From a virus (Duplodnaviria; Caudoviricetes): a stretch of DNA of 64,000 bases. Position 1 is the first letter of the stretch. Each line of letters opens with the position of its first letter. Below the pieces are notes generated by a model. It had not been told where the DNA came from. It saw only the letters and a list, made by a program, of their open reading frames with translations, and did no database searches. The stretch covers positions 1 through 64,000 of the IMG/VR virus record IMGVR_UViG_3300047545_000339; one strand, given 5' to 3'. Made by a program: the position numbers and the translations under genes. Below, piece by piece: positions 1,440 through 21,777 of this stretch.

Positions 1440-1460
1440 TCTAGTAGAAAGAAAAAACAC

Positions 1461-2282
1461 ATGAAAAAGTTTCACTTTTTGAGCGGTCTTCCACGATCTG
1501 GTTCCACTCTATTATCTTCAATACTAAATCAAAATCCTGAAATTTATTCAGGTCCAAACTCCCCAATGTGTGGGATGATGTTTAATTTGGAAAGAAGCAT
1601 TCTTGCTTCAGAGCAGTACCGCTCATATCCAAAACCAGAAGTTCTTCCAGCAACGGTATGTGGAGTGCTTGATAATTATTATTCTGATAGAGAAGAAGAA
1701 GTAATTATTGACAAGTCAAGAGAATGGTCAATCCAAGAACATTTCGGGGTACTTTTAAGAAACCTTCCTTATGATCCCAAAGTAATTCTTACAGTAAGAG
1801 ATATCAAAGATATACTTGCATCATTTATCTATATGGTGAATCAGAATCCACAACAGCCATCATTTATTGATCAAGAAATTCAGGCACGACAGGAATTCAA
1901 TTTTTACCGCCCAATTGATGATATTAGATGTGATCATCTTATGCGTCCAAAGGGATTGATTGACAATGCCCTGTATGGCATTGCTTATGCAATGCTGGAA
2001 GAAAATCGTGAATATTTCCATGTAGTGGAATATGATGATCTAATTAATAATACTCAAGAAACAATGGACGGTATATATGAGTTCCTTGGTTTACAGTCAT
2101 TTAACCATGATCTAAACAACATTGTAAATGTTGCACCAGAAGATGATCGTGTATATGGATTAAAGGGAATGCATGATGTTAGGTCATCAATATCTCCTCG
2201 CAGATTGCCAACAGAAGAAATACTTTCTCCATATGTATCAAGTAAGTATTCAGGACTAGAATTTTGGAGGGAAGTTGAGTAA
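1461..2282 (+). CDS. PAPS-dependent sulfotransferase, RaxST/TPST-like
   Basis: 5'-PSB motif FLSGLPRSGSTLL, then NQNP, DKSREW, 3'-PB motif VRDxxDxxxS, YDDL, IYEFL..F.HD, GMHDVR and a terminal EFW. Confidence 0.9.
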   Translation: MKKFHFLSGLPRSGSTLLSSILNQNPEIYSGPNSPMCGMMFNLERSILASEQYRSYPKPEVLPATVCGVLDNYYSDREEEVIIDKSREWSIQEHFGVLLRNLPYDPKVILTVRDIKDILASFIYMVNQNPQQPSFIDQEIQARQEFNFYRPIDDIRCDHLMRPKGLIDNALYGIAYAMLEENREYFHVVEYDDLINNTQETMDGIYEFLGLQSFNHDLNNIVNVAPEDDRVYGLKGMHDVRSSISPRRLPTEEILSPYVSSKYSGLEFWREVE

Positions 2283-2931
2283 GCCACATGTAAATGTTCT
2301 TATCTGTACCCCAGGAAGAATGATGGAGGCAGAATATGTCAAAAGCCTTGTAGCAACGCTAACTCATCTAAATAATAATGGAATTTCATACTTATACCTA
2401 AATGAATATTCTTCTCAAGTTAATGCTGCAAGAGAAGCAACTATTATGGGGTCTAGATTCTTAAGTGCATTTGCTACAGAGCCACTGTCTGGGGAAGTAA
2501 CATATGACAAGATAATTTGGATTGACTCAGATATTTCATGGAACGTAGAAGACTTCATGAAGTTATATGAATCTAGATATGACGTTGTATCTGGAATATA
2601 CTTCAATGAAGAGGGAGTTCCACTATTTACCTTTAAAGAAGATGATGTATATTTTGACAAAGAAAAACTAAAGCACAAAGAATACCCATTTGAAGTTTTT
2701 GGGGTAGGCTTTGGATTTGTGTCGATGAAGTCTGGTGTCTTTGAAAGTTGTAAAAGACCATGGTTTGAAACAGAATTTCAAAGAATTACAAATGAAGAAG
2801 GAAAAGAAATGTTTCTTCCTTGGGGAGAAGACTTTTCATGGTGCATTAAAGCACATGAGGCAGGGTACAAAATAATGCTTGACCCAAGTATTAGAGTAGG
2901 ACATCACAAGAAGATTAGGATTGCACTATGA
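2275..2931 (+). CDS. GT-A fold (GT2-like) glycosyltransferase
   Basis: WIDSD DxD motif, GVGFGF, GEDFSWC, C-terminal GHHK. TTG start preceded by GGAGG. Confidence 0.8.
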   Translation: MSKPHVNVLICTPGRMMEAEYVKSLVATLTHLNNNGISYLYLNEYSSQVNAAREATIMGSRFLSAFATEPLSGEVTYDKIIWIDSDISWNVEDFMKLYESRYDVVSGIYFNEEGVPLFTFKEDDVYFDKEKLKHKEYPFEVFGVGFGFVSMKSGVFESCKRPWFETEFQRITNEEGKEMFLPWGEDFSWCIKAHEAGYKIMLDPSIRVGHHKKIRIAL

Positions 2932-3611
2932 ATAAGCCACACTTTAATGTAGTATTTGCTACTCCAGGAAATTCATTCACGCCTGGATATGTAAGAAGTT
3001 TACTGCTATCTACAAATGCTCTAAATCAAGAAGGGCTTACCTGGAACTTTCTTAATCAGGGAGGATCTCTTGTAGCAATGGCTAGAGAGTCAACAATTGG
3101 TGGATACGATACAAACAATATTGACATGACTCAGCCATGCAGCGGTGATTTTACTTATGATATGATTATGTGGATTGATTCTGATATATCTTGGATGCCA
3201 TCAGATCTATTTGCTATCTATAATTCTAATAAAGACATTGTTGCAGGTTGTTACCTTATGGAAGATAGGCATATTCCTATTTATCAACAACCACGCGGTG
3301 GAATGATGCCAGAGCAATTACTTGATGATTATAAAAAGCCATTTAAGGTTGCTGGATGTGGATTTGGATTTATAGGAGTAAAGTCTGGGGTATTTGAAAA
3401 GATGCCTAGACCATGGTTTGGACCAGTTCCCATTGCATCTTTTGATGAAAAAACAGGGGAAAGAAAAGAAGACTTCATTCTTGTTGGAGAAGACCTGTCA
3501 TGGTGTACAAAGGCAATAAATTGTGGTTTTGATATTTGGGTTGATCCAGATGTTCGCGTTATTCATCAGAAAACATTTCCACTACCATTTATGTCACAAA
3601 TGAAAAAATGA
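2928..3611 (+). CDS. GT-A fold (GT2-like) glycosyltransferase, paralog of the preceding gene
   Basis: WIDSD, GCGFGF, KSGVFE, RPWF and GEDLSWC are shared with the upstream gene. ATGA overlap. Confidence 0.8.
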   Translation: MNKPHFNVVFATPGNSFTPGYVRSLLLSTNALNQEGLTWNFLNQGGSLVAMARESTIGGYDTNNIDMTQPCSGDFTYDMIMWIDSDISWMPSDLFAIYNSNKDIVAGCYLMEDRHIPIYQQPRGGMMPEQLLDDYKKPFKVAGCGFGFIGVKSGVFEKMPRPWFGPVPIASFDEKTGERKEDFILVGEDLSWCTKAINCGFDIWVDPDVRVIHQKTFPLPFMSQMKK

Positions 3612-4255
3612 AATCAATACCAACATTAATTATTCCAGTACTCAACAGATTTGATTTATTAGAAAATGCACTAGCATCTATTGACTACCCAGTTGATAAT
3701 ATCCTTGTTATAGATAATAGCAATACTTATAAAAACGATAGGGTAAATGTTCTAAATATGCCATCGAATATGGGGGTAGCTGGATCGTGGAATCTTGGAA
3801 TAAAATGCTACCCACATTCACCTTACTGGGTATTTATGGGAAGTGATGTTGAGTGGCTTCCAGGAACATTACAAAAGATATCTGTACTGAGTGGACCAGA
3901 AAGATTCTTGATCAGCAACTATGGATTCAATGCATTTTCTCTTGGGTCCTCTTTTATAAAAGATGTTGGACTATTTGACGAGAACTATTATCCTGCATAT
4001 TATGAAGATGAAGATTATGAGAATCGTGCAAGATATATGGGATTAGGAAATAAGATTCTTTATCCAGATATTCCAGTAAAAATTTATGATAGTTGCACAA
4101 CGGCAAAATCTGGCGGGTATCTAGAAAAGAAAAATAAAACAGATATATCTAATAAAAGATATTATGATAGTAAGTTTGCTAAAGATCCTTTAGAGTGCTA
4201 CAATTGGGAACTACAAAGACGTATAGATAATGATTGGATAGTCAATGAAAATTAA
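3608..4255 (+). CDS. GT2 glycosyltransferase
   Basis: IIPVLNR, VIDNS, NMGVAGSWNLG and GLFDENYYPAYYEDEDY. Confidence 0.85.
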   Translation: MKSIPTLIIPVLNRFDLLENALASIDYPVDNILVIDNSNTYKNDRVNVLNMPSNMGVAGSWNLGIKCYPHSPYWVFMGSDVEWLPGTLQKISVLSGPERFLISNYGFNAFSLGSSFIKDVGLFDENYYPAYYEDEDYENRARYMGLGNKILYPDIPVKIYDSCTTAKSGGYLEKKNKTDISNKRYYDSKFAKDPLECYNWELQRRIDNDWIVNEN

Positions 4256-4964
4256 GTTTGAGGCATTTGACAAAGAAACAGAAATTCTTTTTGATATACC
4301 AAAGCCTGCTGCACAATCTATTCCTCAATGGTATAAAGATATGCCAGTTAGGATGAATGGTGAAAAAGAAGATGGTCTAGCAAGAGATGGTGTTGCAGTA
4401 AGTAACCTTACTCTTAAGGGATGCTCACCATTTCTTGATGCTCTGACCTCTGGATATATGTTTACACTACCATTTGATCTTGAATTTAGAAAACACCCAG
4501 GTAAGGGAATCAACATTCGTTGGGCCACAAATATTAATGCAATAGGATCACATGGTCCAGATCAGGCTCCAGGACTACCAGCCCCATTTGATGGAAACGA
4601 AGATCTACTTAAGTGGAGGCCAGGATTTAGAGTCATTACCCCAAAGGGATATAGTTGTTTGTTTACGCACCCAACAAATAGACACGATCTTCCATTTAGA
4701 ACATTTTCGGGAGTAGTTGATACGGATACATACCCACTTGGAGTAGAGTTTCCATTTCAACTTCTTAATACTATTGACAAGGATATCTTTATTCTTGAAA
4801 AGGGTACCCCTATATGTCAGGTAATTCCATTCAAGAGGGAAGACTGGAGAAGTGAACAGGTTGCATTTGATGAAGATGCAAATAAAAAGAATGGCTTCAT
4901 ATTAAAGTCAAAGATCATCAGATCATATAAGACACAGTTTTGGAATAAAAAGAGTTACCTATAA
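4245..4964 (+). CDS. Conserved phage protein of unknown function, possibly a dUTPase-like beta fold
   Basis: IPQWYK, KGCSPFLDALTSGY, GVVDTD and KGTPICQVIPFKRE. I recall this family from aquatic phages; function unknown. Confidence 0.5.
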   Translation: MKIKFEAFDKETEILFDIPKPAAQSIPQWYKDMPVRMNGEKEDGLARDGVAVSNLTLKGCSPFLDALTSGYMFTLPFDLEFRKHPGKGINIRWATNINAIGSHGPDQAPGLPAPFDGNEDLLKWRPGFRVITPKGYSCLFTHPTNRHDLPFRTFSGVVDTDTYPLGVEFPFQLLNTIDKDIFILEKGTPICQVIPFKREDWRSEQVAFDEDANKKNGFILKSKIIRSYKTQFWNKKSYL

Positions 4965-4972
4965 GGAGACAA

Positions 4973-5932
4973 ATGGCTGACTGGCTACAAAGAAAATCAA
5001 CTGGAGATTCTAATGCTGTATTTGCAGCAAAGGGTGGAACTGAATTATTGAAAGAAGGATTAGAAAAGCATACTAATTTTAAAGAGTATGATAATATAAA
5101 TCTTTTAATATCTACCCCAAATCAAGATAAACTTAGATATACAAAGAAAAACGTTTTGTGGCAGCATCTTAATTATATTGATGAGTCTCTTGCCCCAATG
5201 AGAGATCCAGCATTTATGAAGGCTATTAATGCAACGGTATATGTATCTCATTGGCAGTTAGAAAAGTTTAGGTATTTATTTCAAGTACCACTTCACAATG
5301 CTCATGTTATCCGAAATGCAATTGAGCCGATTGAGTTTAAGCCAAAGTCTAAGGATGGAAAGCTAAAATTAATTTATACCTCCACACCATTTAGAGGTCT
5401 ATCAATTCTTCTAGATGTTTTTGAAATGTTGAATCGTGATGATATAGAATTAGAAGTCTATTCATCTACTGCTATCTATAGTTCAGGATATCAGGCAGCA
5501 TATGGAGATTTATACAAAGATCTTTTTGATCGTGCAAAGTCAATGAAAAACGTTAACTATCATGGATATGCAGAGAACAAAGATATTCACAAGGCACTAC
5601 AAGAGGCACATATTCTTGCATACCCCAGTATTTTTGAAGAAACTGCATGTCTTGCAATGATTGAGGCAGGGGCAGCAGGATGTTCTCTTGTTACAACAGA
5701 TCTTGGTGCATTGCCAGAAACAGGATCTATGTATGCCAACATGATGACAATTAAGTCGGATGAGAAAGACATTAAGGTTGCATATGCACAGCACCTAAAT
5801 CAAGCAATCAATGACTATTGGGATAAATCAAATCAAGAAATGCTAAGAGAGCAGTCAGACTTTTACAATAAATTTTATTCTTGGGAACGCAGAGCAAAAG
5901 AATGGAATGAGTTTTTTGAAGAAGTTTCTTAA
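4973..5932 (+). CDS. GT-B fold (GT4-like) glycosyltransferase
   Basis: GGTE, YTSTPFRGL and YPSIFEETACLAMIEAGAAG (EX7E motif), then GALPET. Confidence 0.88.
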   Translation: MADWLQRKSTGDSNAVFAAKGGTELLKEGLEKHTNFKEYDNINLLISTPNQDKLRYTKKNVLWQHLNYIDESLAPMRDPAFMKAINATVYVSHWQLEKFRYLFQVPLHNAHVIRNAIEPIEFKPKSKDGKLKLIYTSTPFRGLSILLDVFEMLNRDDIELEVYSSTAIYSSGYQAAYGDLYKDLFDRAKSMKNVNYHGYAENKDIHKALQEAHILAYPSIFEETACLAMIEAGAAGCSLVTTDLGALPETGSMYANMMTIKSDEKDIKVAYAQHLNQAINDYWDKSNQEMLREQSDFYNKFYSWERRAKEWNEFFEEVS

Positions 5933-6702
5933 TGATCGTTGATTGCACAATGTTCCACTGGGAGTTTGATCTTCTTGAAATAAGAATGAGAGAACTATGG
6001 GATGTTGTTGATTACTTTTATGTAACAGAGTCTGTATGCGACCATAGAGGAAATGACAGAGAACTAATTCTTTCTAAAAATATTGATAGGTTTGATTGGG
6101 CAAAAGAAAAACTGGTGGTTATCACATCTGATAAGCCAAAAGATGCTGTAACCTCTTGGGATTATGAAAGATATCAAAGATTAAGAAGCGTTAAGGCCTG
6201 CAAGAATATAGTCCAAGAAGATGATTTAATTTTAATATCAGATATTGATGAAATAATGAATGCTGAATCTGTTTTAAAGGCAGATAAAATTGGCGGTATA
6301 TTTACCATGAAAATGCCAATGTTTTATTATTATATGAATCTATATGTAGAAGACTGGAGTTATCCAAAAGCAATAACTTATAAGTATTTAGAAGATCCCA
6401 ATATTCTTAGATCAAGAGATCCAAACAGGACAGCCATAATAGAAAATGCAGGGTGGCACTTTAGTTACCTTGGAACACCAGATCAAATAAGTTATAAAAT
6501 AAAAACATTTGCCCATGACGAATATGACAAAAAAGACTTTACAGATGTTGACAAAATAATGGAAAGCATCTACAATAGAGAAGATATCTTTAAAAGATCA
6601 AGTAAAAAATTCATAACAGGGGGTATAGAAAATTTACCTCAATATGTATTACAAAATATAGATAAATATAACAATTTTATTTTAAGGAGTGAAAATGAGT
6701 AA
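5932..6702 (+). CDS. GT17 (MGAT3-like) N-acetylglucosaminyltransferase-family protein
   Basis: EFDLLEIRMREL, ERYQR, ISDIDEI, AGWHFSY and KIKTFAH. Confidence 0.85.
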   Translation: MIVDCTMFHWEFDLLEIRMRELWDVVDYFYVTESVCDHRGNDRELILSKNIDRFDWAKEKLVVITSDKPKDAVTSWDYERYQRLRSVKACKNIVQEDDLILISDIDEIMNAESVLKADKIGGIFTMKMPMFYYYMNLYVEDWSYPKAITYKYLEDPNILRSRDPNRTAIIENAGWHFSYLGTPDQISYKIKTFAHDEYDKKDFTDVDKIMESIYNREDIFKRSSKKFITGGIENLPQYVLQNIDKYNNFILRSENE

Positions 6703-7078
6703 TCCAAATATCACCATTTCAGGAAGAATTGGCACAGACATTGAAGCACGGAAAATGCCAGACGGTACACAAAAGGCAAAGTTTCGTATCATTACATCAG
6801 ATAGAAAGAAAAATGATAGAGGAGACTGGGAAGATTCTAATGTGTCTGGATGGACAATTGTCGCATGGGATAAATTAGCAGAAAAGTCAATTAGAAGCCT
6901 ATCTAAGGGAGATCTAATAACTGTTCAAGGACAAATAAAGGAAGTATCTTGGCTTGATCCAGATGGTAACAAAAAGAAGTCTACAGAAACCAGGGCATCA
7001 GAAATATCAGTTAATATCTATGGATTAAAAATAGAAGAAGATTCTATTCCAGAAAGAGATGACGAAATTCAGTGGTAA
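6695..7078 (+). CDS. ssb: Bacterial-type single-stranded DNA-binding protein
   Basis: ITISGRIG, AWDKLAE, LSKGD.ITVQG and an acidic tail (DDEIQW). AAGGAG precedes the ATG at 6695. Confidence 0.85.
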   Translation: MSNPNITISGRIGTDIEARKMPDGTQKAKFRIITSDRKKNDRGDWEDSNVSGWTIVAWDKLAEKSIRSLSKGDLITVQGQIKEVSWLDPDGNKKKSTETRASEISVNIYGLKIEEDSIPERDDEIQW

Positions 7079-8112
7079 ATATTGCAGTTTATACAATTGC
7101 AAAAAATGAATCACAATTTGTTGAGCGGTGGTATAACTCTGCAAAAGATGCTGACTATCTTTTTATATTGGATACAGGATCTTCAGATAATACAGCACAA
7201 GTTGCTAAGGATCTTGGGATAAATGTAAAAATACAATCCTTTGATCCTTGGCGCTTTGATGTTGCAAGAAATACAGCACTAAATTCTTTGCCAGAAAATA
7301 TTGATATGTGTATTGCTCTAGATATGGATGAAGTTCTTATTGAGGGATGGAGAGAGCAAATAGAAAAAGCAGTATCTAGTGGAGTTACCAGGCCACGATA
7401 TCAATATACTTGGTCTTGGAATGAAGATGGATCTCCAGGATTAGTTTATGGAGGGGATAAAATACACTCTAGGAATAATTATTTCTGGAAGCATCCTGTT
7501 CATGAGGTTTTAATGTGTTCTGATCAAGAAACTCAGGGGTGGTATGACATAGAAATCCATCACTACCCCGACAAAACAAAATCACGTTCTCAATATATGC
7601 CACTTCTAAAATTAGCGGTAGAAGAAGACCCAGAAGATGATCGTAATGCTTTTTACTATGCTAGAGAGTTGTTTTTCCATTCACGACTAGATGAGGCTGC
7701 CAAGGAGTTTAAAAGGCATCTATCACTTCCTAGGGCGGTATGGAAGCCAGAACGTGCTGCATCTATGAGATACCTTGCCAAAATACAAGATAAAGAGTCT
7801 TGGCTTTTAAGAGCAATTGCAGAATGCCCTGATAGAAGAGAGGCTATAGTAGAATTATCTCAATACTATTATGAGACTCGTCAATTTGAGTTATGTTATG
7901 CATATGCCGTAAGAGCATTGTCAATTAAAGAAAAGCCACTAGAGTATTTATGTGAGGACTTTGCTTGGGGGTATATCCCGTATGATCTAGCAGCAATTTC
8001 TGCCTATAATCTAGATATTAAAGATAAGGCCAGAGAATATGGTAGTAAGGCATTAGAATTAAACCCCAATAACATAAGGCTTTCAGTAAATATGGAATGG
8101 TATAATAAATGA
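7072..8112 (+). CDS. GT2 glycosyltransferase with C-terminal TPR domain (protein/peptide-glycosylating type)
   Basis: IAKNE, LDTGSSD, FDVARN, LDMDE and PVHE, followed by helical TPR-like repeats (FYYARE; KALELNPNN). Confidence 0.88.
   Translation: MVNIAVYTIAKNESQFVERWYNSAKDADYLFILDTGSSDNTAQVAKDLGINVKIQSFDPWRFDVARNTALNSLPENIDMCIALDMDEVLIEGWREQIEKAVSSGVTRPRYQYTWSWNEDGSPGLVYGGDKIHSRNNYFWKHPVHEVLMCSDQETQGWYDIEIHHYPDKTKSRSQYMPLLKLAVEEDPEDDRNAFYYARELFFHSRLDEAAKEFKRHLSLPRAVWKPERAASMRYLAKIQDKESWLLRAIAECPDRREAIVELSQYYYETRQFELCYAYAVRALSIKEKPLEYLCEDFAWGYIPYDLAAISAYNLDIKDKAREYGSKALELNPNNIRLSVNMEWYNK
8098..8106 (+). promoter_or_regulatory. Extended -10 promoter TGGTATAAT
   Basis: Lies in the last codons of the upstream gene, followed by an AAGGTGA RBS and the ATG at 8126. 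Confidence 0.7.
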
Positions 8113-8125
8113 AGGTGATTATTAG

Positions 8126-8485
8126 ATGAGTTTTCCTGCTACGTTCAATATTAGATATTACAAGGGTGATTTTTATCAGTTTGTCATAAGACCAAAAACT
8201 TCCACGGGAGATCCATTTCCAATATCTGATACAACACATGATGCATATTTTTATATTTCTTCCTCAAGAGGAGGAAACTCATCTTCTACAATTCAGGCTT
8301 CAGCACAAATAGATAATGGAAATGTTGTTGCAACAATTCTTCCATCTATAGGAAATCAGTTGAGTCAATCAACTACATATTTTTACGATGTTTCTGTTGA
8401 AAAGAAAGAAGATAACACAGAACTCTATACCCTAGTTACTGGAAGCATATCTGTTACTGCTGACATTACGGGGCCAGGAGCATGA
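8126..8485 (+). CDS. Small beta-rich virion structural protein (putative)
   Basis: GD at the N-terminus, YFYDV and GSISVTADIT form an Ig/BppU-like pattern. Located in the fibre region. Confidence 0.5.
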   Translation: MSFPATFNIRYYKGDFYQFVIRPKTSTGDPFPISDTTHDAYFYISSSRGGNSSSTIQASAQIDNGNVVATILPSIGNQLSQSTTYFYDVSVEKKEDNTELYTLVTGSISVTADITGPGA

Positions 8486-9054: not shown

Positions 9055-9055
9055 T
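9047..9055 (+). promoter_or_regulatory. Extended -10 promoter TGATATAAT
   Basis: Includes the TAA stop of the upstream gene; lies 16 nt before the ATG at 9072. Confidence 0.65.
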
Positions 9056-9071
9056 GAGAATGGTGATATAA

Positions 9072-11049: not shown

Positions 11050-11058
11050 TGATATAAT
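11050..11058 (+). promoter_or_regulatory. Extended -10 promoter TGATATAAT, predicted leaderless
   Basis: Directly follows the upstream stop; 6 nt before the ATG at 11065; no SD. Confidence 0.75.
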
Positions 11059-11064
11059 AAGATT

Positions 11065-12348
11065 ATGGCTAGTGGAAGAACTACTAATTTTAATTTTCCA
11101 TATCCATTTTCTACAGATCCAGTAAATGTTTCTGGAGACATAGAGCAACTTGCAGTATCTCTAGATACATTTTTAGAAGAAAATGTGACACAAGAGTCTG
11201 CTGCAAATACTTTATATGTGTCTAAAGATGGAAATGATAATAATAGTGGAACCTCCCTTTCTGATGCCTTTTTAACTATTCGTGCTGCTGCTGCTAATGC
11301 TGTTGCAGGAACGACTATTTTTGTTAAAAGCGGAGACTATACAGAAAATAATCCAGTAACTATTCCAGCAAGGGTAGCCATAGTGGGAGACAATCTTAGA
11401 ACTGTTACGGTTCGACCAGCAAATAGAACAGCAGACATATTTTATGTAAATAATGGATGTTTTGTAACTGGAATAACTTTTAGAGATCATTTATCTCCTG
11501 CCGCTGCATTCGCTTTTAATCCAGATGGATCTGCTGGAAATATATTTACTAGTCCATATATCCAAGATTGCTCATCAATTACAACTACTGGTAAGGGAAT
11601 GTATGTTGATGGATCTGTTGTTGGAGGACAAAGATCTATGGTTCTTGATGCATACACACAGTTTAACGAGGGCGGCATAGGAATTCATATTGATAATGAT
11701 GGATATGCTCAACTCGTAAGCATATTTACAATCTGTTGTGAAGTTGGAGTTTTATGTACTAATGGTGGATATTGCTCTGTAACAAACTCAAACTCATCCT
11801 TTGGAACTTATGGATTAAAGGCAGATGGAGTAGGTCCAGTAAAACTTACTGGGGCAACGAATAGAACAGATCAAGTAGGAACAGAAATAGTTATTGATGG
11901 GCTTGCTGCTAGACCAGCAGTAGGCAACGTTGTATCTTTTGATGGAGGAACTGTATTTTATACTGTCGCTTCAACCACACCTCTATCAAATACTCAAACA
12001 ACTGTAACACTTATAGAAGAGGTAGAAACTCCACTGCCAATTGACACACCAGCAACGTTTCATGCTAGAAGTTTTATATCAACATCTGGACATACATTTG
12101 AGTATGTTGGTGCAGGTAATATCTTGGCTCAGGCACTACCAGAAACTGGAGGAGTTCCTATCCAAGAAAACGAAGTAGTTGAAGAAAACGGTGGAAAGGT
12201 TTTCTATACAAGTACAGACCAGTGGGGCGATTTTAGAATAGGTGGAGACCTAACAATTAATCGCGCAGATGGTACAATTACAGGTAGGACTTTTGACAGA
12301 AGTCTTTTTGCTGTCTTAACTCCTTACATTTTGGCGATTGAGGGATAA
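11065..12348 (+). CDS. Pectin-lyase-like beta-helix virion protein
   Basis: LYVSKDGNDNNSG...FLTIRAA, IFVKSGDY, IVGDNLR and SPYIQDCS. Confidence 0.7.
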   Translation: MASGRTTNFNFPYPFSTDPVNVSGDIEQLAVSLDTFLEENVTQESAANTLYVSKDGNDNNSGTSLSDAFLTIRAAAANAVAGTTIFVKSGDYTENNPVTIPARVAIVGDNLRTVTVRPANRTADIFYVNNGCFVTGITFRDHLSPAAAFAFNPDGSAGNIFTSPYIQDCSSITTTGKGMYVDGSVVGGQRSMVLDAYTQFNEGGIGIHIDNDGYAQLVSIFTICCEVGVLCTNGGYCSVTNSNSSFGTYGLKADGVGPVKLTGATNRTDQVGTEIVIDGLAARPAVGNVVSFDGGTVFYTVASTTPLSNTQTTVTLIEEVETPLPIDTPATFHARSFISTSGHTFEYVGAGNILAQALPETGGVPIQENEVVEENGGKVFYTSTDQWGDFRIGGDLTINRADGTITGRTFDRSLFAVLTPYILAIEG

Positions 12349-12350
12349 TT

Positions 12351-12686
12351 ATGGCTACAGTACCATTGAATGCGTTTAAAACAGTTACGGCAAATCTAAC
12401 AACATCTATGACAGATGTTTATACTGCCCCAGCAGGAGTGTCATCTATTATTTTGACTGCTCAAATAGCCAACGTTACAAGCACATCTGGAAGTGCTACT
12501 TTTGCACATGTTTCTGGATCTACAGTCACAGAACTAATCAAAGACTATGAGATTCCTGGAAATGATGCTGCATCAGCAACAACTGGAAAGTTAGTTCTTG
12601 AATCAGGTCAAAAAATTAGGGTGGCAGCAAATACTTCAAATAAAATGAAATTAACGCTAAGTATCCTTGAGTCGGCAAATGAGTAA
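12351..12686 (+). CDS. Small virion structural protein
   Basis: VYTAPAG, AQIANV, KLVLESG and LSILESAN pattern, typical of phage fibre-associated proteins. Confidence 0.55.
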
Positions 12687-15303
12687 AATATTATCTGGAA
12701 AACAAAAAGTAAAGTCTCCTACAGAAGTATCGGAAGACAGATATAATTTTTTAAGTCTTTCTGAAGCAGAGCCAAATTTAGGTGCTCCACTATCCTCAAG
12801 TGCTGTTTTAATATCTGATACTCAGGGTACTAGACTGTGGGTAGAAAACGTTAGCCTTATCGGATCAACTGGACCCACTGGTCCAGCAGGACCCACAGGA
12901 CCATTCGGTGCCCCAGGTGCCCCAGGAGTTGGAATTAGAATCTTGGGATCATACGATACATTACAAGACTTAATAGATAATCAGCCTACAGGACAGGTTG
13001 GAGATGGATTTTTAGTAGGACAAAACCTATATGTATGGAGTAGCATAGAAAGTACTTGGGTCTTGGCTGGTCAAGTTCAGGGTCCAACAGGTCCAACAGG
13101 CCCAACAGGTCCTACGGGTCCAACTGGACCAAAAGGAGATGACTCTTTTGTCACGGGTCCAACTGGCCCTACTGGAGCAACTGGAGCAGATTCTACAGTA
13201 ACAGGTCCAACAGGACCAACAGGACCAACTGGGCCAATTGGAGATACTGGTCCAGTCGGGGCAGCATCTACAGTAACTGGTCCAACTGGTCCAACAGGAG
13301 CGGCAGGGTATTCATCAACATACTTTGAATATCAAGCAAAAACAACATTGAACTCTGGAGATCCAGGAAACGGCTTTATTATTTGGAGCAACTTAAGCCA
13401 AACATCTTCAACACAATTAAACATTAGTCATTTAAATGGCCAAGGAATAGATATAGATCAATTCTTGTCTATACTAAAACAATATGATAAATTAATTATT
13501 CAGGATAAGAATAATTCAAACAACTATCAAGAATGGCAGGTCTCTGGTCAGCCAACAGAAACATTAACATATGCTCAAATACCAGTAACAATAGTAAGTT
13601 CTGAAGGAACTGGAACAACTGGATTTTCTAATAATCAAAATATTATTCTTGCTACTGTAAGTATAGGAGCCACTGGCCCAACTGGTCCAACTGGTGCTAC
13701 TGGTGCAACAGGTCCATCTGTGACAGGACCAACAGGACCAACAGGGGCAACTGGCCCAACTGGTCCCATAGGAGATGAGTATCAAACATCAAGCACAACA
13801 GGTTTAACCATTGGTGCTGGTACTAAAACATTAACGGTAGACGTAGAACTTGCATATAGTGCAGGACAATATGTAGTGGTTTTTTACGATTCTAGTAACT
13901 CAATGGCTGGAGAAATAACTTCCTATAATAGTTCTACTGGTGAATTAGTTTTTGTTTCTAGTGTTTTTGAAGGATCTGGATCTTATTCAATATGGTCAGT
14001 AAATCTTTCTGGAGTTCAAGGACCAACTGGACCTACTGGTGCCACTGGTCCATCAGTAACTGGACCAACTGGTCCTACTGGAGCAACAGGGCCACAAGGA
14101 GACATAACAAAGGTAATTAGAAAGCAGGTAACTGGACCATATACCTTGCTACAGGAGGATGCTGGCAAGATAATAGAGGTAACATCTTCTTCTGCAACAA
14201 CAATAACTATTCCAAACAGTAGTGAATCAAGCATTAGTGTGGATTCAACATTTGATATTGTTCAATATGGGGATGGTCAAGTAACAATATTGCCTAATAA
14301 TATTGAGCCAACATGGACTACTATGACTATAGATGCGTCGTCTGGATATGAAGATATTATTTACTCAAATTCTCAATGGGTTGTAACGGCTGGTTCATTT
14401 GCTCCTCAAGGAATATTTAGTTCCACAGACTCTATTACATGGACAAGCAATACATATCCAACAGCATTTAACAGATATACAGATATAGCATACGGAGATA
14501 GCAAATATCTCCTAGCAATAAGATTTGACAATGAGTTAAGATCTTCAACAGATCTAAACACATGGACAACTACAACTTCAACCTTTGCTCCATCAACAAC
14601 CATCTGGTCTATTGCTTATGGAAATGGCTTATGGGCAATTGCTGGATCTTATGGACAAATTGCTTCATCAACAGATTCAATAACCTGGACAACTCAGTCA
14701 TTCTTTTCTTATAATACAAATAATGAAGTAAGATCTATTTACCACGGTAACGATACTTGGGTACTAGGAGGAAAGTCTGGTTCTGGATCTGTAAATGGAG
14801 TAATAGCATATTCTACAGATGCTGTAACTTGGACCACATCATTATCATCAGTTAACAATATAACCTCTGTATTTTATGGAGGAAATATGTGGGTCGCTGG
14901 AGGATATTATCAATCAATATTTACTTCTACAGATGCCATAACATGGACTACAGCAACAGTTCCTTCTGGAACTTCATTGATAAAATCTATTACATATTCT
15001 GGATCAAACTGGTATGCAACTGGTGGATATTCTCTGTATAGGTCAACAGACACCGTAACTTGGACTACATCTTTTGACTCTCCAAGTGGACAAAGCATAA
15101 ACTCTATTTCTAGCAACGCCCTAGGAAATATTATTTCTGTAGGAACAAACGCATTGGCTAGATCTTATGATGAAAATAATTTATTATCGGTTACGGTAAG
15201 ATCTAAAAATAATGCACTAAAGTTGTCTTCACAATATTCCGCTGTAACTTTATACAAAAGAGATGAAGAAGAATGGGTTGCAATAGGAGATCTCGAAGAA
15301 TAA
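12679..15303 (+). CDS. Collagen-like (Gly-Pro-Thr) fibre with beta-propeller
   Basis: Four GPT/GAT triplet blocks and repeated STDxxTWT Asp-box blades. ATG at 12679 overlaps the upstream gene end. Confidence 0.85.
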
Positions 15304-15327
15304 TGTTATTTTTATCATAACTAAAAT

Positions 15328-15356
15328 TTGAATATTTTTAATAACGGTGATATACT
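15328..15356 (+). promoter_or_regulatory. Sigma70/SigA-type promoter of the RNR gene
   Basis: TTGAAT-17 bp-TATACT with extended TG; AAGGAG RBS downstream. Confidence 0.7.
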
Positions 15357-15392
15357 CAATATCTATTAAACCAAAATAAAGGAGCGTGTCCT

Positions 15393-17348
15393 ATGTCATT
15401 TATTGATGAGAATGGATCAATTTCAGATCCATATAGAAACTTCATTCATGTTTCACGATATGCAAGATGGATTGAAGATAAAAACAGAAGAGAAACTTGG
15501 GTGGAAACAGTTGATCGATATATAAACTTTATGAAAAATCATTTAGTTGAAGATTATAATTATGAAAAAGATAATATTATTTTTTCTCAAGTAAAAGATG
15601 CAATTATTCAACATAAGATAATGCCCTCTATGCGTGCTTTAATGACCGCAGGACCAGCATTAGAAAGAGATAATATCGCAGCATACAATTGTTCTTTTAT
15701 CGCGGTAGATAGCCTTAGATCCTTTGATGAGGCCATGTATATTCTTATGAATGGAACAGGAGTAGGATTTTCTGTTGAGCAGAAGTATGTTAATAGTCTT
15801 CCTATTATTGCAGAGGAGTTTTATCCAACAAACACAACAATCGTTGTTGAGGATAGCAAGCTAGGATGGGCAAAATCATACAAAGAACTTATTGGACTTC
15901 TTTCTATGGGACAAATTCCAAACTGGGATATGTCTAAAGTTAGACCAGCGGGGGCACGGTTAAAGACCTTTGGTGGAAGAGCATCTGGACCAGAACCCCT
16001 ACATGCACTATTTCAGTTTACCGTAGATATTTTTAGAAGAGCAGCAGGACGTAGACTTAAGCCAATTGAGGCACACGATATTATGTGTAAAATTGGAGAG
16101 GTTGTTGTTGTAGGAGGGGTGCGTCGCTCTGCCTTGATCTCGTTATCAAACCTTGATGACTTTGAAATGGCAAAGGCAAAGAGTGGAAATTGGTGGGAAT
16201 CAGAAGGACAGCGTGCTCTAGCAAATAATTCAGCAGTATATAACGCAAAGCCAAATACTGCACAGTTCCTCCGTGAATGGAGAAATCTTTATGAGTCAAA
16301 ATCAGGAGAACGTGGAATCTATAATATGGATTCAGTTCGTAAGCATATTGATAAGTTTGATCGTCGTGACTCAAGCAAGGTAGTTGGAACTAATCCATGT
16401 GGAGAAATTCTTCTTCGTGCAAATGAATTTTGTAACCTTACTGAGGTAGTAATTGAAGCCTCAGACACTGTTGAAGATTTATCAGAAAAGATTAGATTAG
16501 CTACAATTCTTGGTACATGGCAGTCAACACTTACAAACTTTAAATATATTCGTAAATCCTGGAAGGATAATTGTGAAGAAGAAAGACTTCTTGGAGTGTC
16601 TCTAACAGGAATTTTTGGCAACAAGATTACTGCAACAAATGGAGAAAAGTTAGCAGGAATTCTTGATGCACTTAGAGAAGAGGCAGTTATGACAAATGCT
16701 AAAGAAGCAGATAAGCTTGGGATTAACCATTCTGCTTCCATTACTTGTGTTAAGCCATCTGGAACTGTTTCACAGCTAACAGGAGTATCAAGTGGAATTC
16801 ATCCATGGTATTCTCCATATTATTTGCGCTCAGTTCGTGGAGACAACAAAGATCCTCTAACAACATTCTTAAAGGAATCTGGTGTTCCAAATGAACCAGA
16901 TGTTATGAAGCCAAATGACACAACAGTATTTTATTTTCCAATTAAAGCACCAAAGGGTGCTGTTGTAACTAAGGACTTAACTGCTGTTGATCATCTAGAG
17001 ATGTGGAAGACATATCGTGAGCATTGGACAGAGCATAATCCATCAGTAACCGTAAACATTCATGAAGATGAATGGTTGCGTGTAGGCGCTTGGGTGTATG
17101 ATAATTTTGACAATGTTGGTGGAGTATCTTTTCTTCCTGCATCAGAACACACATATAAGCAAGCACCATATCAAGAAATTACAAAAGAAGAGTATGAAGA
17201 GTGGATAAAGAAGATGCCATCCAGAATAGACTGGAATATGATAACATTATATGAGACAGAGGACGGGACCACAGGAAGCCAAGAATTGTCATGTACTGCT
17301 GGCGTTTGTGAGATCGTAGACATTACCACCTCTGTGGCAACCGCCTAA
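15393..17348 (+). CDS. nrdJ: Class II adenosylcobalamin-dependent ribonucleotide reductase (monomeric RTPR type)
   Basis: YNCSF, GTGVGF, GGVRRSA, GTNPCGE, TCVKPSGT and C-terminal CTAGVC. No nrdB nearby. Confidence 0.95.
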   Translation: MSFIDENGSISDPYRNFIHVSRYARWIEDKNRRETWVETVDRYINFMKNHLVEDYNYEKDNIIFSQVKDAIIQHKIMPSMRALMTAGPALERDNIAAYNCSFIAVDSLRSFDEAMYILMNGTGVGFSVEQKYVNSLPIIAEEFYPTNTTIVVEDSKLGWAKSYKELIGLLSMGQIPNWDMSKVRPAGARLKTFGGRASGPEPLHALFQFTVDIFRRAAGRRLKPIEAHDIMCKIGEVVVVGGVRRSALISLSNLDDFEMAKAKSGNWWESEGQRALANNSAVYNAKPNTAQFLREWRNLYESKSGERGIYNMDSVRKHIDKFDRRDSSKVVGTNPCGEILLRANEFCNLTEVVIEASDTVEDLSEKIRLATILGTWQSTLTNFKYIRKSWKDNCEEERLLGVSLTGIFGNKITATNGEKLAGILDALREEAVMTNAKEADKLGINHSASITCVKPSGTVSQLTGVSSGIHPWYSPYYLRSVRGDNKDPLTTFLKESGVPNEPDVMKPNDTTVFYFPIKAPKGAVVTKDLTAVDHLEMWKTYREHWTEHNPSVTVNIHEDEWLRVGAWVYDNFDNVGGVSFLPASEHTYKQAPYQEITKEEYEEWIKKMPSRIDWNMITLYETEDGTTGSQELSCTAGVCEIVDITTSVATA

Positions 17349-17364
17349 ATAGGTCGGTTTAAGT

Positions 17365-17401
17365 AAGGGGAGGGGCCATGAATGAGGTGGCCTCTCCCTT
17401 T
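17365..17401 (+). terminator. GC-rich hairpin after nrdJ, probable terminator
   Basis: AAGGGGAGGGGCCA ... TGGCCTCTCCCTTT imperfect inverted repeat. Confidence 0.65.
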
Positions 17402-17409
17402 GCTATAAT
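17401..17409 (+). promoter_or_regulatory. Extended -10 promoter TGCTATAAT
   Basis: Abuts the hairpin; GAGGT RBS and ATG at 17425 follow. Confidence 0.75.
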
Positions 17410-17424
17410 TAGTAAGAGGTAAAC

Positions 17425-20400
17425 ATGTCAACATCATCCAATCTTTATGCAAACGCTATATTCTCAGAACATCCCATAGCAATCTATGCATTAGATGACA
17501 ACGTTAAATATATATCATTGATATCAGACGCACAAAGATACTTTGGGTCTGGAGGATGGTCTGCATCTGCAAATAATTCAGCATCTGTATCTTTTAATGA
17601 TTCTCCAGTAATACCAGAACTTGCCTCCCCATTTGTTGACAATATTTATTCTCAGATATCTGCATCAAATGTTAACTCTGATGACACAATTATTGAATGG
17701 AAAAGTCCAGAACTTTTTTCTTTCAACGAACTCAATGAAGAACTATCAACATTTTCTATAGCGCTCTATTTGTATCAAACATCATTTTTTGTAAATTGGT
17801 ATGAAATTGGATATACATACTATGACAATTCTCTTGGACAAGATGTTGAAGTCGTCAATAGGGTTGAGTCCCAAGAAGGAGAGTCTTGGATAAACTTTGA
17901 CTTCTCATTTTTGCCTAGTGAATATGATTCAAATAGTGCAAGAATATTAATAAGAGTAAACGTAGATTCTGGGGGAACACCAGAAGATTATAGGTTTATA
18001 GTAAATGGAATAACTGTTGGACAGTGGTCAGAAACATCATCAACTGAGTCTTTGGGGCAACAGCCATCACAAAACTCCTTGGGGTACGATTCTTTAATTG
18101 CATATGAGTATGGAATACAAGAAAACTCTGGATATTATATTGTAGAAAACAACAAACTTTTGGCAGTTAATGAAGGATTGCCGTTAGTGTACGGATCTCA
18201 GAATTGTACAAGACTGTATCCAGCAATAAATAATGATAGGCCGTCTATGATTTTTCCCGCTAGAGGATTTTTAAATCCACTGGGAAAATATAATGAATAC
18301 AGTATAGAGTTCTGGATGAATATAGATCCAAATACCTATGAAACAATAAGAATTTTTGGAAATACTGATACAGATGATGGAATATATGTAAACAATGCAT
18401 TTCTATCAATAAAAGTTGGAGATAATTTTGGATCTTACTCAGTTTCTGAGTGGTACAGACCAATGCTCGTTCACTTTATTTTATCAATAGATACCGCAAA
18501 TATTTTTATAAATGGAGAGCAAGTAATATCAATTCCATTTGATAGAAACTCTTATCCATTCTCTTCTACAGAAGATTGGGTAGGCTTCTACTCTCATCAA
18601 AATATAGAAATGTTTTCTATAGACTGTGTTTCTTTTTACTCATATTCTATTCCTTTACAGGTAGCAAAAAGAAGATTTGTTTATGGCCAAGGAACAAGTG
18701 CTCCAGAAATAGTCGCAGAATCATTTGATGGAAAAAGTGCTTATGTAAATTATTCAAATGCCAACTATAACGTTAATAAAATATATCCAGATACCTCAAA
18801 CTGGGAAGGTGGATATTCTAACAACATAAACAAAACAAGAACATCTCTATCCTTGCCAAACTATTCACTACCAGAAATATATATTGGTGGAAGAAATCTT
18901 GAATCTTTATATGAGGATAACAAAATAGTGAATGAATTAGAGGGAGATAAATTTTTTACTTTTAGGCCACACGTTTCTGATGGAAAGTTTGTTACAGAAG
19001 GAACTAAGTGGACAGAGCCAGGGTACATATTTTTTGATTCATTAGGAATAGTTGATTCCCTCTCTTCTATGTATGGAGTATTTTCTACAAAAAAATTAGA
19101 ACAAACATCAACGCTAATGTTGATAACAAGATCAGATAATCCAGATAGACTTCATGTTTATTTAGACAATGGAACAATATACTATGACTTTAATGGTTCA
19201 ACAATATATTCAGAGCAAATAGATCAAATTTATTATGACGAATATTCCTATGATCTTTATTCGCAGTACGAGTTTGACTATGAATATAGTTATCAAAGTG
19301 GATATTATTATAATGAAATTATAGGATGGGAATATTCCTTTGCCTTTGGATTAAAAATTAAAGACTTTGTAAATACATTTGGATATAGTCTAAAAAAGTT
19401 TTTCCAATCACCAAACAATCTTCAGGTATACTTTGGCGGGGATGGAGAAAATACATTTGAGGGCAAAATACACTCTATAGGATTTTCAGACTTAAATAAT
19501 GCTAATGAAACTTCTGATTTGTTTTTAACAAATGGAATCGTTGATTATCTTGAGTATGAATTTTTATCTAATCATTTTGCTACATATACACTTACCCCCA
19601 TAATTAGGTTTAATCGTTACTTCTTGGATATATCTGTTTCCTCACTATGGGAAGAATATTTTCCTTTATCAATATTTGCAGGATATGTAAATAATGCAGA
19701 TGGTCAAAAATATTATGATATTGACTTCTTGCAGGTAAATCTTGGATACCCATCCATTTATGAAATAGTAGAAAAACTAATAACTAGGTTTAGTTGGTCA
19801 TATGTTGAATTATTTTCAGAATATAATTTCCCATCACAAAAAGGTTATGACATTCTGGACAATGAAAACTTAAGCGGATATGAAACATATGAAGACTTAA
19901 CAATAAAGAATGAATTGAAAACTTTTATTAATACAGATAAGTCAAGTTTAAAATCATATATAACATTTCAACTATTGTCTGAAGGGGCAAATGAGCCACT
20001 TTCTAGTTTTCCATTTACAAGAGATCCATATGAATCAAAAATTGTTGATGCAGACTTAGAAAATGATCCATCAAACAGAAAAAGACCATATCTTACTAAG
20101 TTTGAATTTGTTGATAAAACTATAGTTTTTCCTCCAAAATATTTTGACTTTAACGATGTTGCTGCCGTCTTCCATTTTGTTTTCAAGCACGAGGGTATAC
20201 TTAGCAATCCCCTATACATAAGAGATTTTGAAATAGTTTCAAGAGCACTAGATCATAACACCTTTAATGCAATTGGCTCAGAAAGTGGTATGCCATTCTA
20301 TCCATATACAAGGTCTGGAGTTTATTACGAAAGCAAAACAAAGAACCCAATGATAATTTCAAAGAAAAGATCCCCATATCTTTATCTCACAGAAAGTTCT

Positions 20401-21777
20401 GGAATTAGTCTATTAGGGGATCAGACAACTGACAGAGAGTATGGAGTATCAGTCCCAATCAATCAAGAAAAGAATTCTGATTATGAAATCAATGCAGTCC
20501 AACTTTGGATGAAATATGATAGAAGATCTCTTCCATTAACAGAATATCCTTTATTTGAGGTTCAGGCTTTAAACAAAACAATAGAGTTTATCGTAAAGTC
20601 AGATGCATCTGGAAAAAGAGGAATGATTACTGCAAGGAATAAGTCAAACAGATTCCTAGAAGAAGGTGTTGTTTTTTATCAAAACGGCATAAGGGTAAAG
20701 AGTCCAATGATTCAGTTTAATCAGTGGGACTCTATTGGGGTATCATTTAAACAAGAACTTTCCTTTAATGAATATACTGGATACGTTAATATATTTAGAG
20801 GGGCAACCTTTAACAATATAACACATTATAAAACAAGCGGTCTTGGAAAAACTTTAGAGATTATTACAAGACCTTGGCGCAGAGTGCTTACAGAAAATGA
20901 TATTGACAACCTAACGTGGGCATCTTGGTATGTTGGACCCAACACAGAAACAAGAACTAGAACAAACATTGCATTTAATCCAAGTTTTGAGTCTAATACA
21001 GATGGCTGGATTGCAAATGGTACTGGAACAACAATAGAAAGAATATCTTCTGATTCAAGATTTGGAGGATACTCTTTGAAATGTACAACTGGATCTGCAA
21101 ATAATTCAGGAGTATTGTTTGCTAATACAAGTGGTCAAAGAATGTCGATATCTCCCAATACATCTTATACTGTTAGTGCATATGTTAAGATTCCACAGGG
21201 ATCTCCAAATAAAACATTGAAACTTAGAATTAGGCAGTATGAGGCAGTAACTGGGGGGTCTGCTTTGCCAGTTCAAGATCAGCAGCCTGTTACTTTTACA
21301 GGATTAGATGGATGGACAAGATTGTTTTATACTTTTACATCCAATTCATCTGCAAACGCTTTAGGAATTGAGATAAGTCAAGAAACTGGAAATCAAGTAG
21401 GCTCTATATTCTATGTTGATGCTGTTCTTATTGAAGACACATCTTCATTGTCACCACAACTAAATAGATACTTTGATGGTGGAACTGCATCCCCAGGAAC
21501 ATTTTTTGAATCGTTGGTATGGAATGGAACAGAAAATAACTCAACGTCAACTGGAGTATATTATGTACCATCAGAAAATAACATTAGACAATGGGTTAAT
21601 GTTTATGCAATAAGCGAAGACATAACTTTTGCTTTAACTCCAGCAGATATTTATAAAGCATTTGTTGGCACAAATGGTTTCGTCATAGATGACAACACTT
21701 CCTTAGTTATAGATGCAGACGAAATGAACGTTTATAGTGACCTTAGATGGTCCAGATATAGCGATACACCAGCATAA
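17425..21777 (+). CDS. Large virion structural protein with LamG-like and carbohydrate-binding (CBM4/9-like) domains
   Basis: EHPIAIYALDD start; SIEFW...FINGEQV LamG-like segments; NIAFNPSFE..TDGW...YTVSAYVK...WTRL...FYVDAVLIE module. Confidence 0.65.
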   Translation: MSTSSNLYANAIFSEHPIAIYALDDNVKYISLISDAQRYFGSGGWSASANNSASVSFNDSPVIPELASPFVDNIYSQISASNVNSDDTIIEWKSPELFSFNELNEELSTFSIALYLYQTSFFVNWYEIGYTYYDNSLGQDVEVVNRVESQEGESWINFDFSFLPSEYDSNSARILIRVNVDSGGTPEDYRFIVNGITVGQWSETSSTESLGQQPSQNSLGYDSLIAYEYGIQENSGYYIVENNKLLAVNEGLPLVYGSQNCTRLYPAINNDRPSMIFPARGFLNPLGKYNEYSIEFWMNIDPNTYETIRIFGNTDTDDGIYVNNAFLSIKVGDNFGSYSVSEWYRPMLVHFILSIDTANIFINGEQVISIPFDRNSYPFSSTEDWVGFYSHQNIEMFSIDCVSFYSYSIPLQVAKRRFVYGQGTSAPEIVAESFDGKSAYVNYSNANYNVNKIYPDTSNWEGGYSNNINKTRTSLSLPNYSLPEIYIGGRNLESLYEDNKIVNELEGDKFFTFRPHVSDGKFVTEGTKWTEPGYIFFDSLGIVDSLSSMYGVFSTKKLEQTSTLMLITRSDNPDRLHVYLDNGTIYYDFNGSTIYSEQIDQIYYDEYSYDLYSQYEFDYEYSYQSGYYYNEIIGWEYSFAFGLKIKDFVNTFGYSLKKFFQSPNNLQVYFGGDGENTFEGKIHSIGFSDLNNANETSDLFLTNGIVDYLEYEFLSNHFATYTLTPIIRFNRYFLDISVSSLWEEYFPLSIFAGYVNNADGQKYYDIDFLQVNLGYPSIYEIVEKLITRFSWSYVELFSEYNFPSQKGYDILDNENLSGYETYEDLTIKNELKTFINTDKSSLKSYITFQLLSEGANEPLSSFPFTRDPYESKIVDADLENDPSNRKRPYLTKFEFVDKTIVFPPKYFDFNDVAAVFHFVFKHEGILSNPLYIRDFEIVSRALDHNTFNAIGSESGMPFYPYTRSGVYYESKTKNPMIISKKRSPYLYLTESSGISLLGDQTTDREYGVSVPINQEKNSDYEINAVQLWMKYDRRSLPLTEYPLFEVQALNKTIEFIVKSDASGKRGMITARNKSNRFLEEGVVFYQNGIRVKSPMIQFNQWDSIGVSFKQELSFNEYTGYVNIFRGATFNNITHYKTSGLGKTLEIITRPWRRVLTENDIDNLTWASWYVGPNTETRTRTNIAFNPSFESNTDGWIANGTGTTIERISSDSRFGGYSLKCTTGSANNSGVLFANTSGQRMSISPNTSYTVSAYVKIPQGSPNKTLKLRIRQYEAVTGGSALPVQDQQPVTFTGLDGWTRLFYTFTSNSSANALGIEISQETGNQVGSIFYVDAVLIEDTSSLSPQLNRYFDGGTASPGTFFESLVWNGTENNSTSTGVYYVPSENNIRQWVNVYAISEDITFALTPADIYKAFVGTNGFVIDDNTSLVIDADEMNVYSDLRWSRYSDTPA

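Follow-up and report, generated by a model that had tools for sequence, protein, structure and literature searches.

Tyrosine sulfation in prokaryotes has so far been demonstrated for a single enzyme, RaxST, which is encoded together with its small peptide substrate gene, raxX, and the secretion genes raxA and raxB (PMC4646787). The function of phage sulfotransferases is stated as unclear (PMC10580990), and glycosylation of virions by phage glycosyltransferases (GTs) has been reported for the mycobacteriophages Che8 and Rita (Freeman et al. 2023, as cited in PMC11256854). Here, we describe a gene for a member of the RaxST sequence family (protein P0001, 273 aa, positions 1461–2282, + strand) and the GT cassette that it heads in an uncultured tailed phage, located in the window, that is, the first 64 kb of the 101,213-bp IMG/VR virus record IMGVR_UViG_3300047545_000339 (CheckV completeness 94%; G+C 37.6%). 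The original prediction, made from the sequence of the window alone, held that this enzyme sulfates a Tyr/acid-rich loop in a 1450-aa protein of the same phage. Our analysis points, with moderate confidence, to a mobile late cassette whose product would be a sulfated glycan, probably carried by a fibre protein, and to a Tyr loop that is a separate, independently evolving variable surface loop.

Identification of the open reading frame (ORF) at 1461–2282 as a sulfotransferase that uses 3'-phosphoadenosine 5'-phosphosulfate (PAPS) was confirmed. P0001 matches the Pfam families Sulfotransfer_3 (PF13469, 2e-15) and Sulfotransfer_1 (1e-11) above their cut-offs and phrog_27463 at 2e-80, and the motif series recognized at the outset is conserved. 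Six residues are invariant in 70 diverse relatives (G9, R12, G14, Q24, S121, and H238). The 5'-phosphosulfate-binding (5'-PSB) loop, GxPRSG[ST]T, is present as G9-L-P-R12-S-G14-S-T, and the 3'-phosphate-binding (3'-PB) motif, an Arg and a Ser 8 residues apart, as the conserved R113 and S121. The AlphaFold (AF2) model, with a predicted local distance difference test (pLDDT) score of 97, has the sulfotransferase alpha/beta fold and found structural matches only to sulfotransferase structures. The PAPS loop begins at residue 9, so that there is no room for an N-terminal membrane anchor, and the product is a predicted soluble, PAPS-dependent sulfotransferase of the RaxST sequence family. Neither adenosine 5'-phosphosulfate (APS) kinase nor ATP sulfurylase was found in the whole record, which extends to the 101-kb sequence the absence of PAPS-synthesis genes first noted in the window; the enzyme would therefore depend on host PAPS.

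Relatives of P0001 number 2696 in one protein collection and 2139 representatives at 50% clustering in another, and its nearest Atlas clusters are 94–100% viral. Annotated homologues (24–40% identity) are encoded by the Synechococcus phages S-SKS1, S-SRM01, and S-SCSM1. Two natural fusions occur in the family: P0333 (688 aa), a member of the viral clade, joins the sulfotransferase to a GT4 domain, and P0272 (500 aa) joins it to a 2-oxoglutarate (2OG)-Fe(II) oxygenase. Two further members, P0345 (850 aa) and P0392 (703 aa), carry long extensions without a Pfam match. The closest “bacterial” homologues (41–42% identity) lie on two short contigs, L219 and L220, of metagenome-assembled genomes labelled Actinomycetota and Iamiaceae, and these contigs may belong to phages and have been binned together with the host.

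For comparison with RaxST, the published Xanthomonas oryzae pv. oryzae (Xoo) sequence (PMC6637879, Fig. S6) provided a short N-terminal motif that was used to find genomic orthologues. With this motif, three loci were located within the bacterial family to which an Arenimonas genome belongs; the proteins encoded by two of them are nearly identical to the published RaxST at their ends. By BLASTP, P0001 aligns with the RaxST orthologues end to end (273 columns), with 27.5–28.2% identity and E values of 4e-30 to 1e-33. All six family-invariant residues of P0001 are kept in RaxST, including the two Gly, the Gln, and the C-terminal His-227, with R12 and S121 corresponding to Arg-11 and Ser-118, both named essential for RaxST (PMC6637879). 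Identity and residues together place P0001 in the RaxST sequence family. In a quick, unrooted FastTree tree of 90 sequences, RaxST falls inside a bacterial clade (support 99) with proteins of Paraburkholderia, Dyella, Ralstonia, and Acetobacteraceae, and P0001 in a separate viral and metagenomic, mostly viral, clade (support 96). With the two proteins in separate clades, we class P0001 as a RaxST-family member and not as a RaxST orthologue, RaxST itself apparently belonging to a bacterial sister clade. No raxX- or raxA/raxB-type gene is present among the neighbours at 1 to 12.3 kb (propeller protein, GTs, single-stranded DNA-binding protein (SSB), and fibres), and only 21 nt separate the sulfotransferase start from the preceding gene. 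The likeness to RaxST from which the original prediction set out is thus one of family (28% identity, E 1e-33, six invariant residues) and does not extend to orthology.

Members of the RaxST clade also provide a bacterial context for comparison. On the Ralstonia solanacearum megaplasmid CP023017.1 (L216), a homologue 33% identical to P0001, which sits in RaxST's bacterial clade, adjoins cysC and a non-ribosomal peptide synthetase (NRPS) of more than 5000 aa, an arrangement that suggests a sulfated non-ribosomal peptide. It is conserved in 133 Ralstonia megaplasmids. The contexts of homologues on Acetobacter and Komagataeibacter plasmids gave no informative neighbours.

A search of the PDB with P0001 as a single sequence returned marginal matches only (E 0.07 or worse), and a profile of 70 relatives matched the tyrosylprotein sulfotransferase (TPST) TPST1 (2e-13), the olefin-synthase sulfotransferase (1e-10), TPST2 (6e-10), and the CurM sulfotransferase (2e-9). 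Ranking by structure placed TPST1/2 and a tick TPST first (Z 18.7–19.3), making TPST the closest structural class, followed by the polyketide sulfotransferases (Z 16.4–16.7) and the heparan-sulfate 3-O-sulfotransferases (Z 13.4–14.6), with everything else at 14.6 or below. The NCBIfam NoeE model scored 24.7 bits against a cut-off of 500 and covered the PAPS loop alone, and P0001 does not match this curated model of the NoeE/NodH type. Clustering with carbohydrate sulfotransferases, an outcome set out as counting against the original prediction, was not seen among the references compared, a set that held no NodH, LpsS, or Stf0. Glu99 of TPST2, which Teramoto is said to have identified in 2013 as the catalytic glutamate, aligns with Asn33 of P0001, in a column that varies within the family and is occupied by Thr in RaxST. 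As RaxST, too, lacks an equivalent of Glu99, its absence from P0001 is no argument against tyrosine specificity.

The most constant property of the viral sulfotransferase is its company. The stop codon of the gene is overlapped by the gene for a GT-A-type GT-like protein with a D84-S85-D86 motif (p1574a, 2275–2931; phrog_1574 at 9e-54), followed on the same strand by a second phrog_1574 paralogue (p1574b, 2928–3611), a GT2 (3608–4255; PF00535 at 7e-8, phrog_29879), a conserved cassette protein (p7084, phrog_7084, 4245–4964), a GT4 with a Glycos_transf_1 domain (4973–5932), and a GT17-like protein (5932–6702; PF04724 at 5e-27). A GT2 joined to tetratricopeptide repeats (GT2-TPR, 7072–8112), identified by Pfam and found also in relatives without the sulfotransferase, comes last, and from 1461 to 8112 start and stop codons overlap or nearly abut. 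In 19 of 19 orthologous loci (sulfotransferase identity 61–82%), the sulfotransferase is followed directly by p1574a, p1574b, sometimes the GT2, p7084, and the GT4; p7084 is kept in nearly all cassettes. The phrog_1574 proteins share the conserved DSD motif, and a profile of 11 relatives matches the A197 glycosyltransferase of Sulfolobus turreted icosahedral virus (STIV) at 1.4e-4. The two genes 3' of the sulfotransferase do not encode 2OG oxygenases; their products are GT-A-like. A scheme of hydroxylation followed by sulfation was set aside for this phage, the required dioxygenase being absent from its genome, where no 2OG-Fe(II) oxygenase of the PF13640 family was found.

Immediately 5' of the sulfotransferase, at 3–1439, lies the C-terminal part of a beta-propeller repeat protein, recognized from its translation, with Ser/Thr-rich repeats of about 40 aa, cut by the start of the record. 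In most of the 19 orthologous loci, the same protein is encoded directly 5' of the sulfotransferase. A relative in L092 (758–5953) is 1731 aa long and contains DUF6242 and Kelch_6. A match to the designed propeller Ika8 was obtained at 1e-4. The repeats have almost no acidic residues adjoining Tyr.

The proposed acceptor lies some 15 kb downstream, in a 1450-aa protein (17425–21777, + strand) composed, according to Pfam, model, and profile evidence, of laminin-G/ConA-like beta-sandwich domains, with a Laminin_G_3-like stretch and a C-terminal carbohydrate-binding domain, CBM_4_9 (aa 1181–1317, 20965–21375; PF02018 at 2e-13). The protein has no PHROG match and no annotated homologue; its CBM_4_9 domain is about 30% identical to minor tail proteins of Arthrobacter and Microbacterium phages, and a place in the virion is plausible. 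This CBM_4_9 module is present in some homologues and missing from forms of about 1200 aa. The loop at 19231–19311 (aa 603–629) was translated as originally quoted. Its 27 aa include 12 Tyr and 6 Asp/Glu, whereas Tyr makes up 6.7% of the remaining protein; the binomial P of this enrichment is about 6e-8 for a single window and about 8e-5 for the protein as a whole. In all other 27-aa windows of the ORFs in the 101-kb genome, the Tyr count never exceeds 8, and outside the loop region it never exceeds 7. The contrast with the beta-rich flanks was confirmed by a model of aa 430–745, in which residues 604–633 have a pLDDT below 50 and the surrounding beta-sandwich one above 90; alignment and model together describe a predicted disordered insertion of variable length between two conserved beta strands. 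With the loop domain as query, Foldseek found nothing at E 0.001 or better and only weak LNS, laminin-G, and pentraxin rows.

Several features of the loop speak for a sulfation acceptor. Tyrosines among acidic residues, as found here, fit the classical sulfation consensus; around five of the Tyr, 3 or more acidic residues lie within ±5, Asp or Glu occupies position –1 of three, and the exposed, predicted disordered loop contains no basic residue. The genes for the enzyme and for the 1450-aa protein lie on one strand and in one late region. Across 165 homologues of the 1450-aa protein, the loop adds 0 to about 50 residues. In homologues above about 47% identity, it is rich in Tyr, Gly, Asp, Asn, and Ser, with up to 65 residues and up to 17 Tyr between the anchors, and in most others it has shrunk to 14–22 residues with 0–3 Tyr. 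In close relatives the tyrosines are kept and the acidic residues are not, even in a relative 82% identical, which counts against sulfation of the loop.

The distribution of enzyme and loop is still less favourable to such a pairing. About 15 lineages were tabulated, mostly from partial contigs, so that a missing sulfotransferase means none in the syntenic 30 kb and not none in the genome. In at least seven lineages (G051; G055/057/059/061; G067; L143; L192/193; G029; G049), the sulfotransferase is present and the homologue of the 1450-aa protein has no loop. The first of these, G051, has a sulfotransferase 82% and GTs 76–89% identical to those of this phage, and a 1450-aa homologue that is only about 40% identical and loop-less. 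In G052 and G053 (76% and 69% complete, respectively), the cassette immediately precedes the genes for SSB, o124, and the portal, and a 1450-aa homologue was not found. Conversely, the lineage with the richest loop (17 Tyr; L132/133/210, L212–214) has no sulfotransferase in 19 kb upstream or 10 kb downstream, its syntenic cassette consisting of a phrog_1574 protein, GT4, and GT2-TPR; loop-bearing L125/127 lack one in 20 kb upstream and L126/128/129 in 18 kb upstream. Loop and sulfotransferase occur together only in this genome and in L131, among the lineages tabulated, and four near-complete loop-less genomes have no sulfotransferase. The enzyme and the loop are distributed independently. The occurrence of loops, including the most Tyr-rich, without a sulfotransferase in 18–20 kb of syntenic upstream DNA comes close to the outcome set out in advance as counting against the pairing, namely, a loop equally common in phages lacking the enzyme. 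The sulfotransferase, in turn, is 15 kb from the 1450-aa gene and yet abuts GTs in every orthologous locus.

The reading we favour takes this constant company as the clue to function. The sulfotransferase would head a late, translationally coupled cassette comprising, besides it, the two GT-A paralogues, GT2, p7084, GT4, and GT17, with GT2-TPR nearby, and situated between the propeller fibre-like gene and other fibre genes; the cassette appears to travel among phage lineages as a unit. A protein of the virion surface would receive a glycan assembled by the GTs, whose product the sulfotransferase, using host PAPS, would then sulfate. The prime candidate for the target is the propeller protein encoded immediately 5' of the sulfotransferase gene. 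In the lectin-like 1450-aa protein, the Tyr loop would be a disordered, hypervariable stretch inserted where a laminin-G-like beta-sandwich forms a hairpin; it is probably unmodified and adhesive or ligand-binding, its Tyr/Ser/Gly/Asp make-up being like that of antibody paratopes. The family of the enzyme, the synteny of the cassette, and the independence of enzyme and loop are observed; that the acceptor is a glycan, that the target is in the virion, and that the loop has such a role, we infer from them.

Several observations weigh against this reading. RaxST, the sole characterised member of the sequence family to which P0001 belongs, sulfates peptide tyrosine, and the nearest solved folds are the TPSTs (Z 18.7–19.3), ranked above the heparan-sulfate 3-O-sulfotransferases (Z 13.4–14.6) in a comparison that included no characterised bacterial carbohydrate sulfotransferase. 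The Ralstonia homologue next to cysC and a giant NRPS has a peptide context, and the fusion P0272 couples a family member to a 2OG-Fe(II) oxygenase. In L131, which bears the loop, a paralogous sulfotransferase (38% identity) lies 3.4 kb upstream with no GT cassette. Linkage to GT genes does not prove that a glycan is the acceptor, and we know of no experiment that has shown a sulfated glycan on any phage.

Of the alternatives, the one that fares best, although unlikely, would have the cassette alter a glycan or lipid of the host envelope, for instance to block superinfection or to assist progeny release, or make a small sulfated metabolite. Phage sulfotransferases are commonly listed as auxiliary genes of unclear role (PMC10580990), family members occur in bacterial non-structural contexts, and the PHROGs class of the neighbouring GTs is “moron, auxiliary metabolic gene and host takeover.” The cassette, however, sits among fibre genes, shares its strand with the structural operon, has coupled reading frames, and travels with the fibre-like propeller gene; a scan of its neighbours revealed no genes related to membrane anchoring or export.

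Somewhat less probable again is direct sulfation of a side chain (Tyr, or Ser, Thr, or a hydroxylated residue) of another virion protein, such as the propeller protein or the collagen-like fibres, with the GTs acting in parallel. Membership in the RaxST family, the TPST-like fold, and the propeller gene that constantly adjoins the sulfotransferase are all consistent with it, as are the fusion of sulfotransferase and oxygenase in P0272 and the collagen-repeat fibre at 12667–15303. In bacteria, moreover, sulfotransferases have been predicted to act on collagen-like or tail-collar proteins encoded in their own operons (Iyer et al. 2010, PMC2938197). On the other side stand the lack of a PF13640 oxygenase in this genome, the scarcity of acidic residues next to Tyr in the propeller repeats, and a protein acceptor for which there is no direct evidence. 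Given the kinship to RaxST and the TPST-like fold, direct protein sulfation stays alive as a minority view.

In a broader form of that view, which we consider doubtful, the whole viral clade of the family would consist of protein-tyrosine sulfotransferases acting on virion proteins, the acceptors here including the Tyr/acid-rich loop. Least probable of all is the specific proposal that the enzyme sulfates the tyrosines of aa 603–629 to build a polyanionic sulfotyrosine patch on the virion: kinship to RaxST (28% identity, E 1e-33), structural proximity to the TPSTs, and the second loop-bearing lineage with a sulfotransferase nearby, L131, speak for it, and the genomes with the enzyme and no loop or the loop and no enzyme, together with the attachment of the enzyme to the GT cassette, leave this the least supported part of the original prediction.

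The wider setting of the locus is that of a phage with all large genes of the window on the + strand. The propeller repeat protein, the sulfotransferase, and the overlapping gene chain to 8112 are followed by small genes and by the tail fibres, which end at 15303. Next come a class II ribonucleotide reductase (RNR) and the 1450-aa protein, and then a protein of 124 aa, the portal, the protease, the capsid, and a tape-measure-like gene product of 3701 aa. The tail-fibre genes (11065–15303) encode proteins of 427 aa and 111 aa and the collagen-repeat fibre of 878 aa. The head module starts with the portal protein (22164–23792), which is 48–50% identical to those of Streptomyces phages (Stanwilliamsviridae, Annadreamyvirus; L215). 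No megablast match to positions 1–8000 of the window was found among phage records. With the Streptomyces phage Sham (portal identity 48%), the phage shares the order GT, GT, RNR, endolysin, 954-aa hypothetical protein, small protein, and portal, the two GTs of Sham standing at the position corresponding to the cassette. Portal kinship and the Sham-like gene order indicate that the host is probably an aquatic actinobacterium. Relatives occur in lakes and estuaries. The 954-aa protein of Sham, the positional counterpart of the 1450-aa protein, gave a weak profile match to it (E 0.0026, probability 11%), and homology is not claimed.

The class II (B12-type) RNR at 15393–17348, between the fibre genes and the head module, is 80–92% identical in close relatives (87–92% in loop-bearing lineages) and only 27–29% identical in the more distant G055- and L192-type lineages. 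Two very large genes encode proteins of 3701 aa (31046–42151) and 1762 aa (42731–48019); the counterpart of the former in relatives has PhageMin_Tail, which points to an unusually long tape-measure-type protein. In related phages, a tryptophan-halogenase-family protein (PF04820) is encoded just 5' of the fibre genes (L126, 1–1333; L128 and L129, 8027–9538).

The RaxST sequence family has a large, mostly viral branch, whose genes are linked in a conserved manner to GT cassettes and fibre genes and provide a concrete system for asking whether phages sulfate their particles, on sugar or on tyrosine. Either acceptor would represent new chemistry for phage surfaces and would bear on adsorption, on host range, and on recognition by antibodies. 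The searchable literature yielded no natural sulfotyrosine on phages; if the viral clade did consist of tyrosine sulfotransferases acting on virion proteins, a phage particle would be shown to carry one for the first time, and prokaryotes would have a second system of tyrosine sulfation.

Set beside the systems described so far, P0001 shares with RaxST of X. oryzae the sequence family, a similar length (267 aa in RaxST, 273 aa in P0001), a 5'-PSB motif at the very N-terminus, and the lack of a Glu at the position of TPST2 Glu99. It differs in belonging to a mostly viral clade, whereas RaxST belongs to a bacterial one (support 99), and in having GT and fibre genes as neighbours in place of raxX and raxA/raxB. 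With TPST1 and TPST2 it has in common the Arg-type 5'-PSB loop and a fold in which 233–239 residues align at a root-mean-square deviation of 3.3–3.9, at only 16–18% identity and with TM-scores of only 0.5–0.6; unlike P0001, which has no anchor and has Asn33 in place of the catalytic Glu, the animal enzymes are type II membrane proteins with an N-terminal anchor. The polyketide sulfotransferase domains of CurM and olefin synthase come from the same Pfam family and are the second-best structure and profile matches, but they are megasynthase domains acting on acyl-ACP, and their catalytic Glu is not kept in P0001. The dioxygenase–sulfotransferase operons, themselves only predicted, likewise place a P-loop sulfotransferase beside collagen-like and fibre-type proteins, with a dioxygenase as partner where this phage has GTs (Iyer et al. 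2010, PMC2938197). A parallel in gene arrangement exists with Che8 and Rita, siphoviruses of the actinobacteriophage type in which, as in this phage, GT genes adjoin the structural genes; as described in the citing account (PMC11256854), those systems are without a sulfotransferase, whereas the cassette described here is larger, with 5–7 GT-like genes, and has a propeller fibre gene linked to it.

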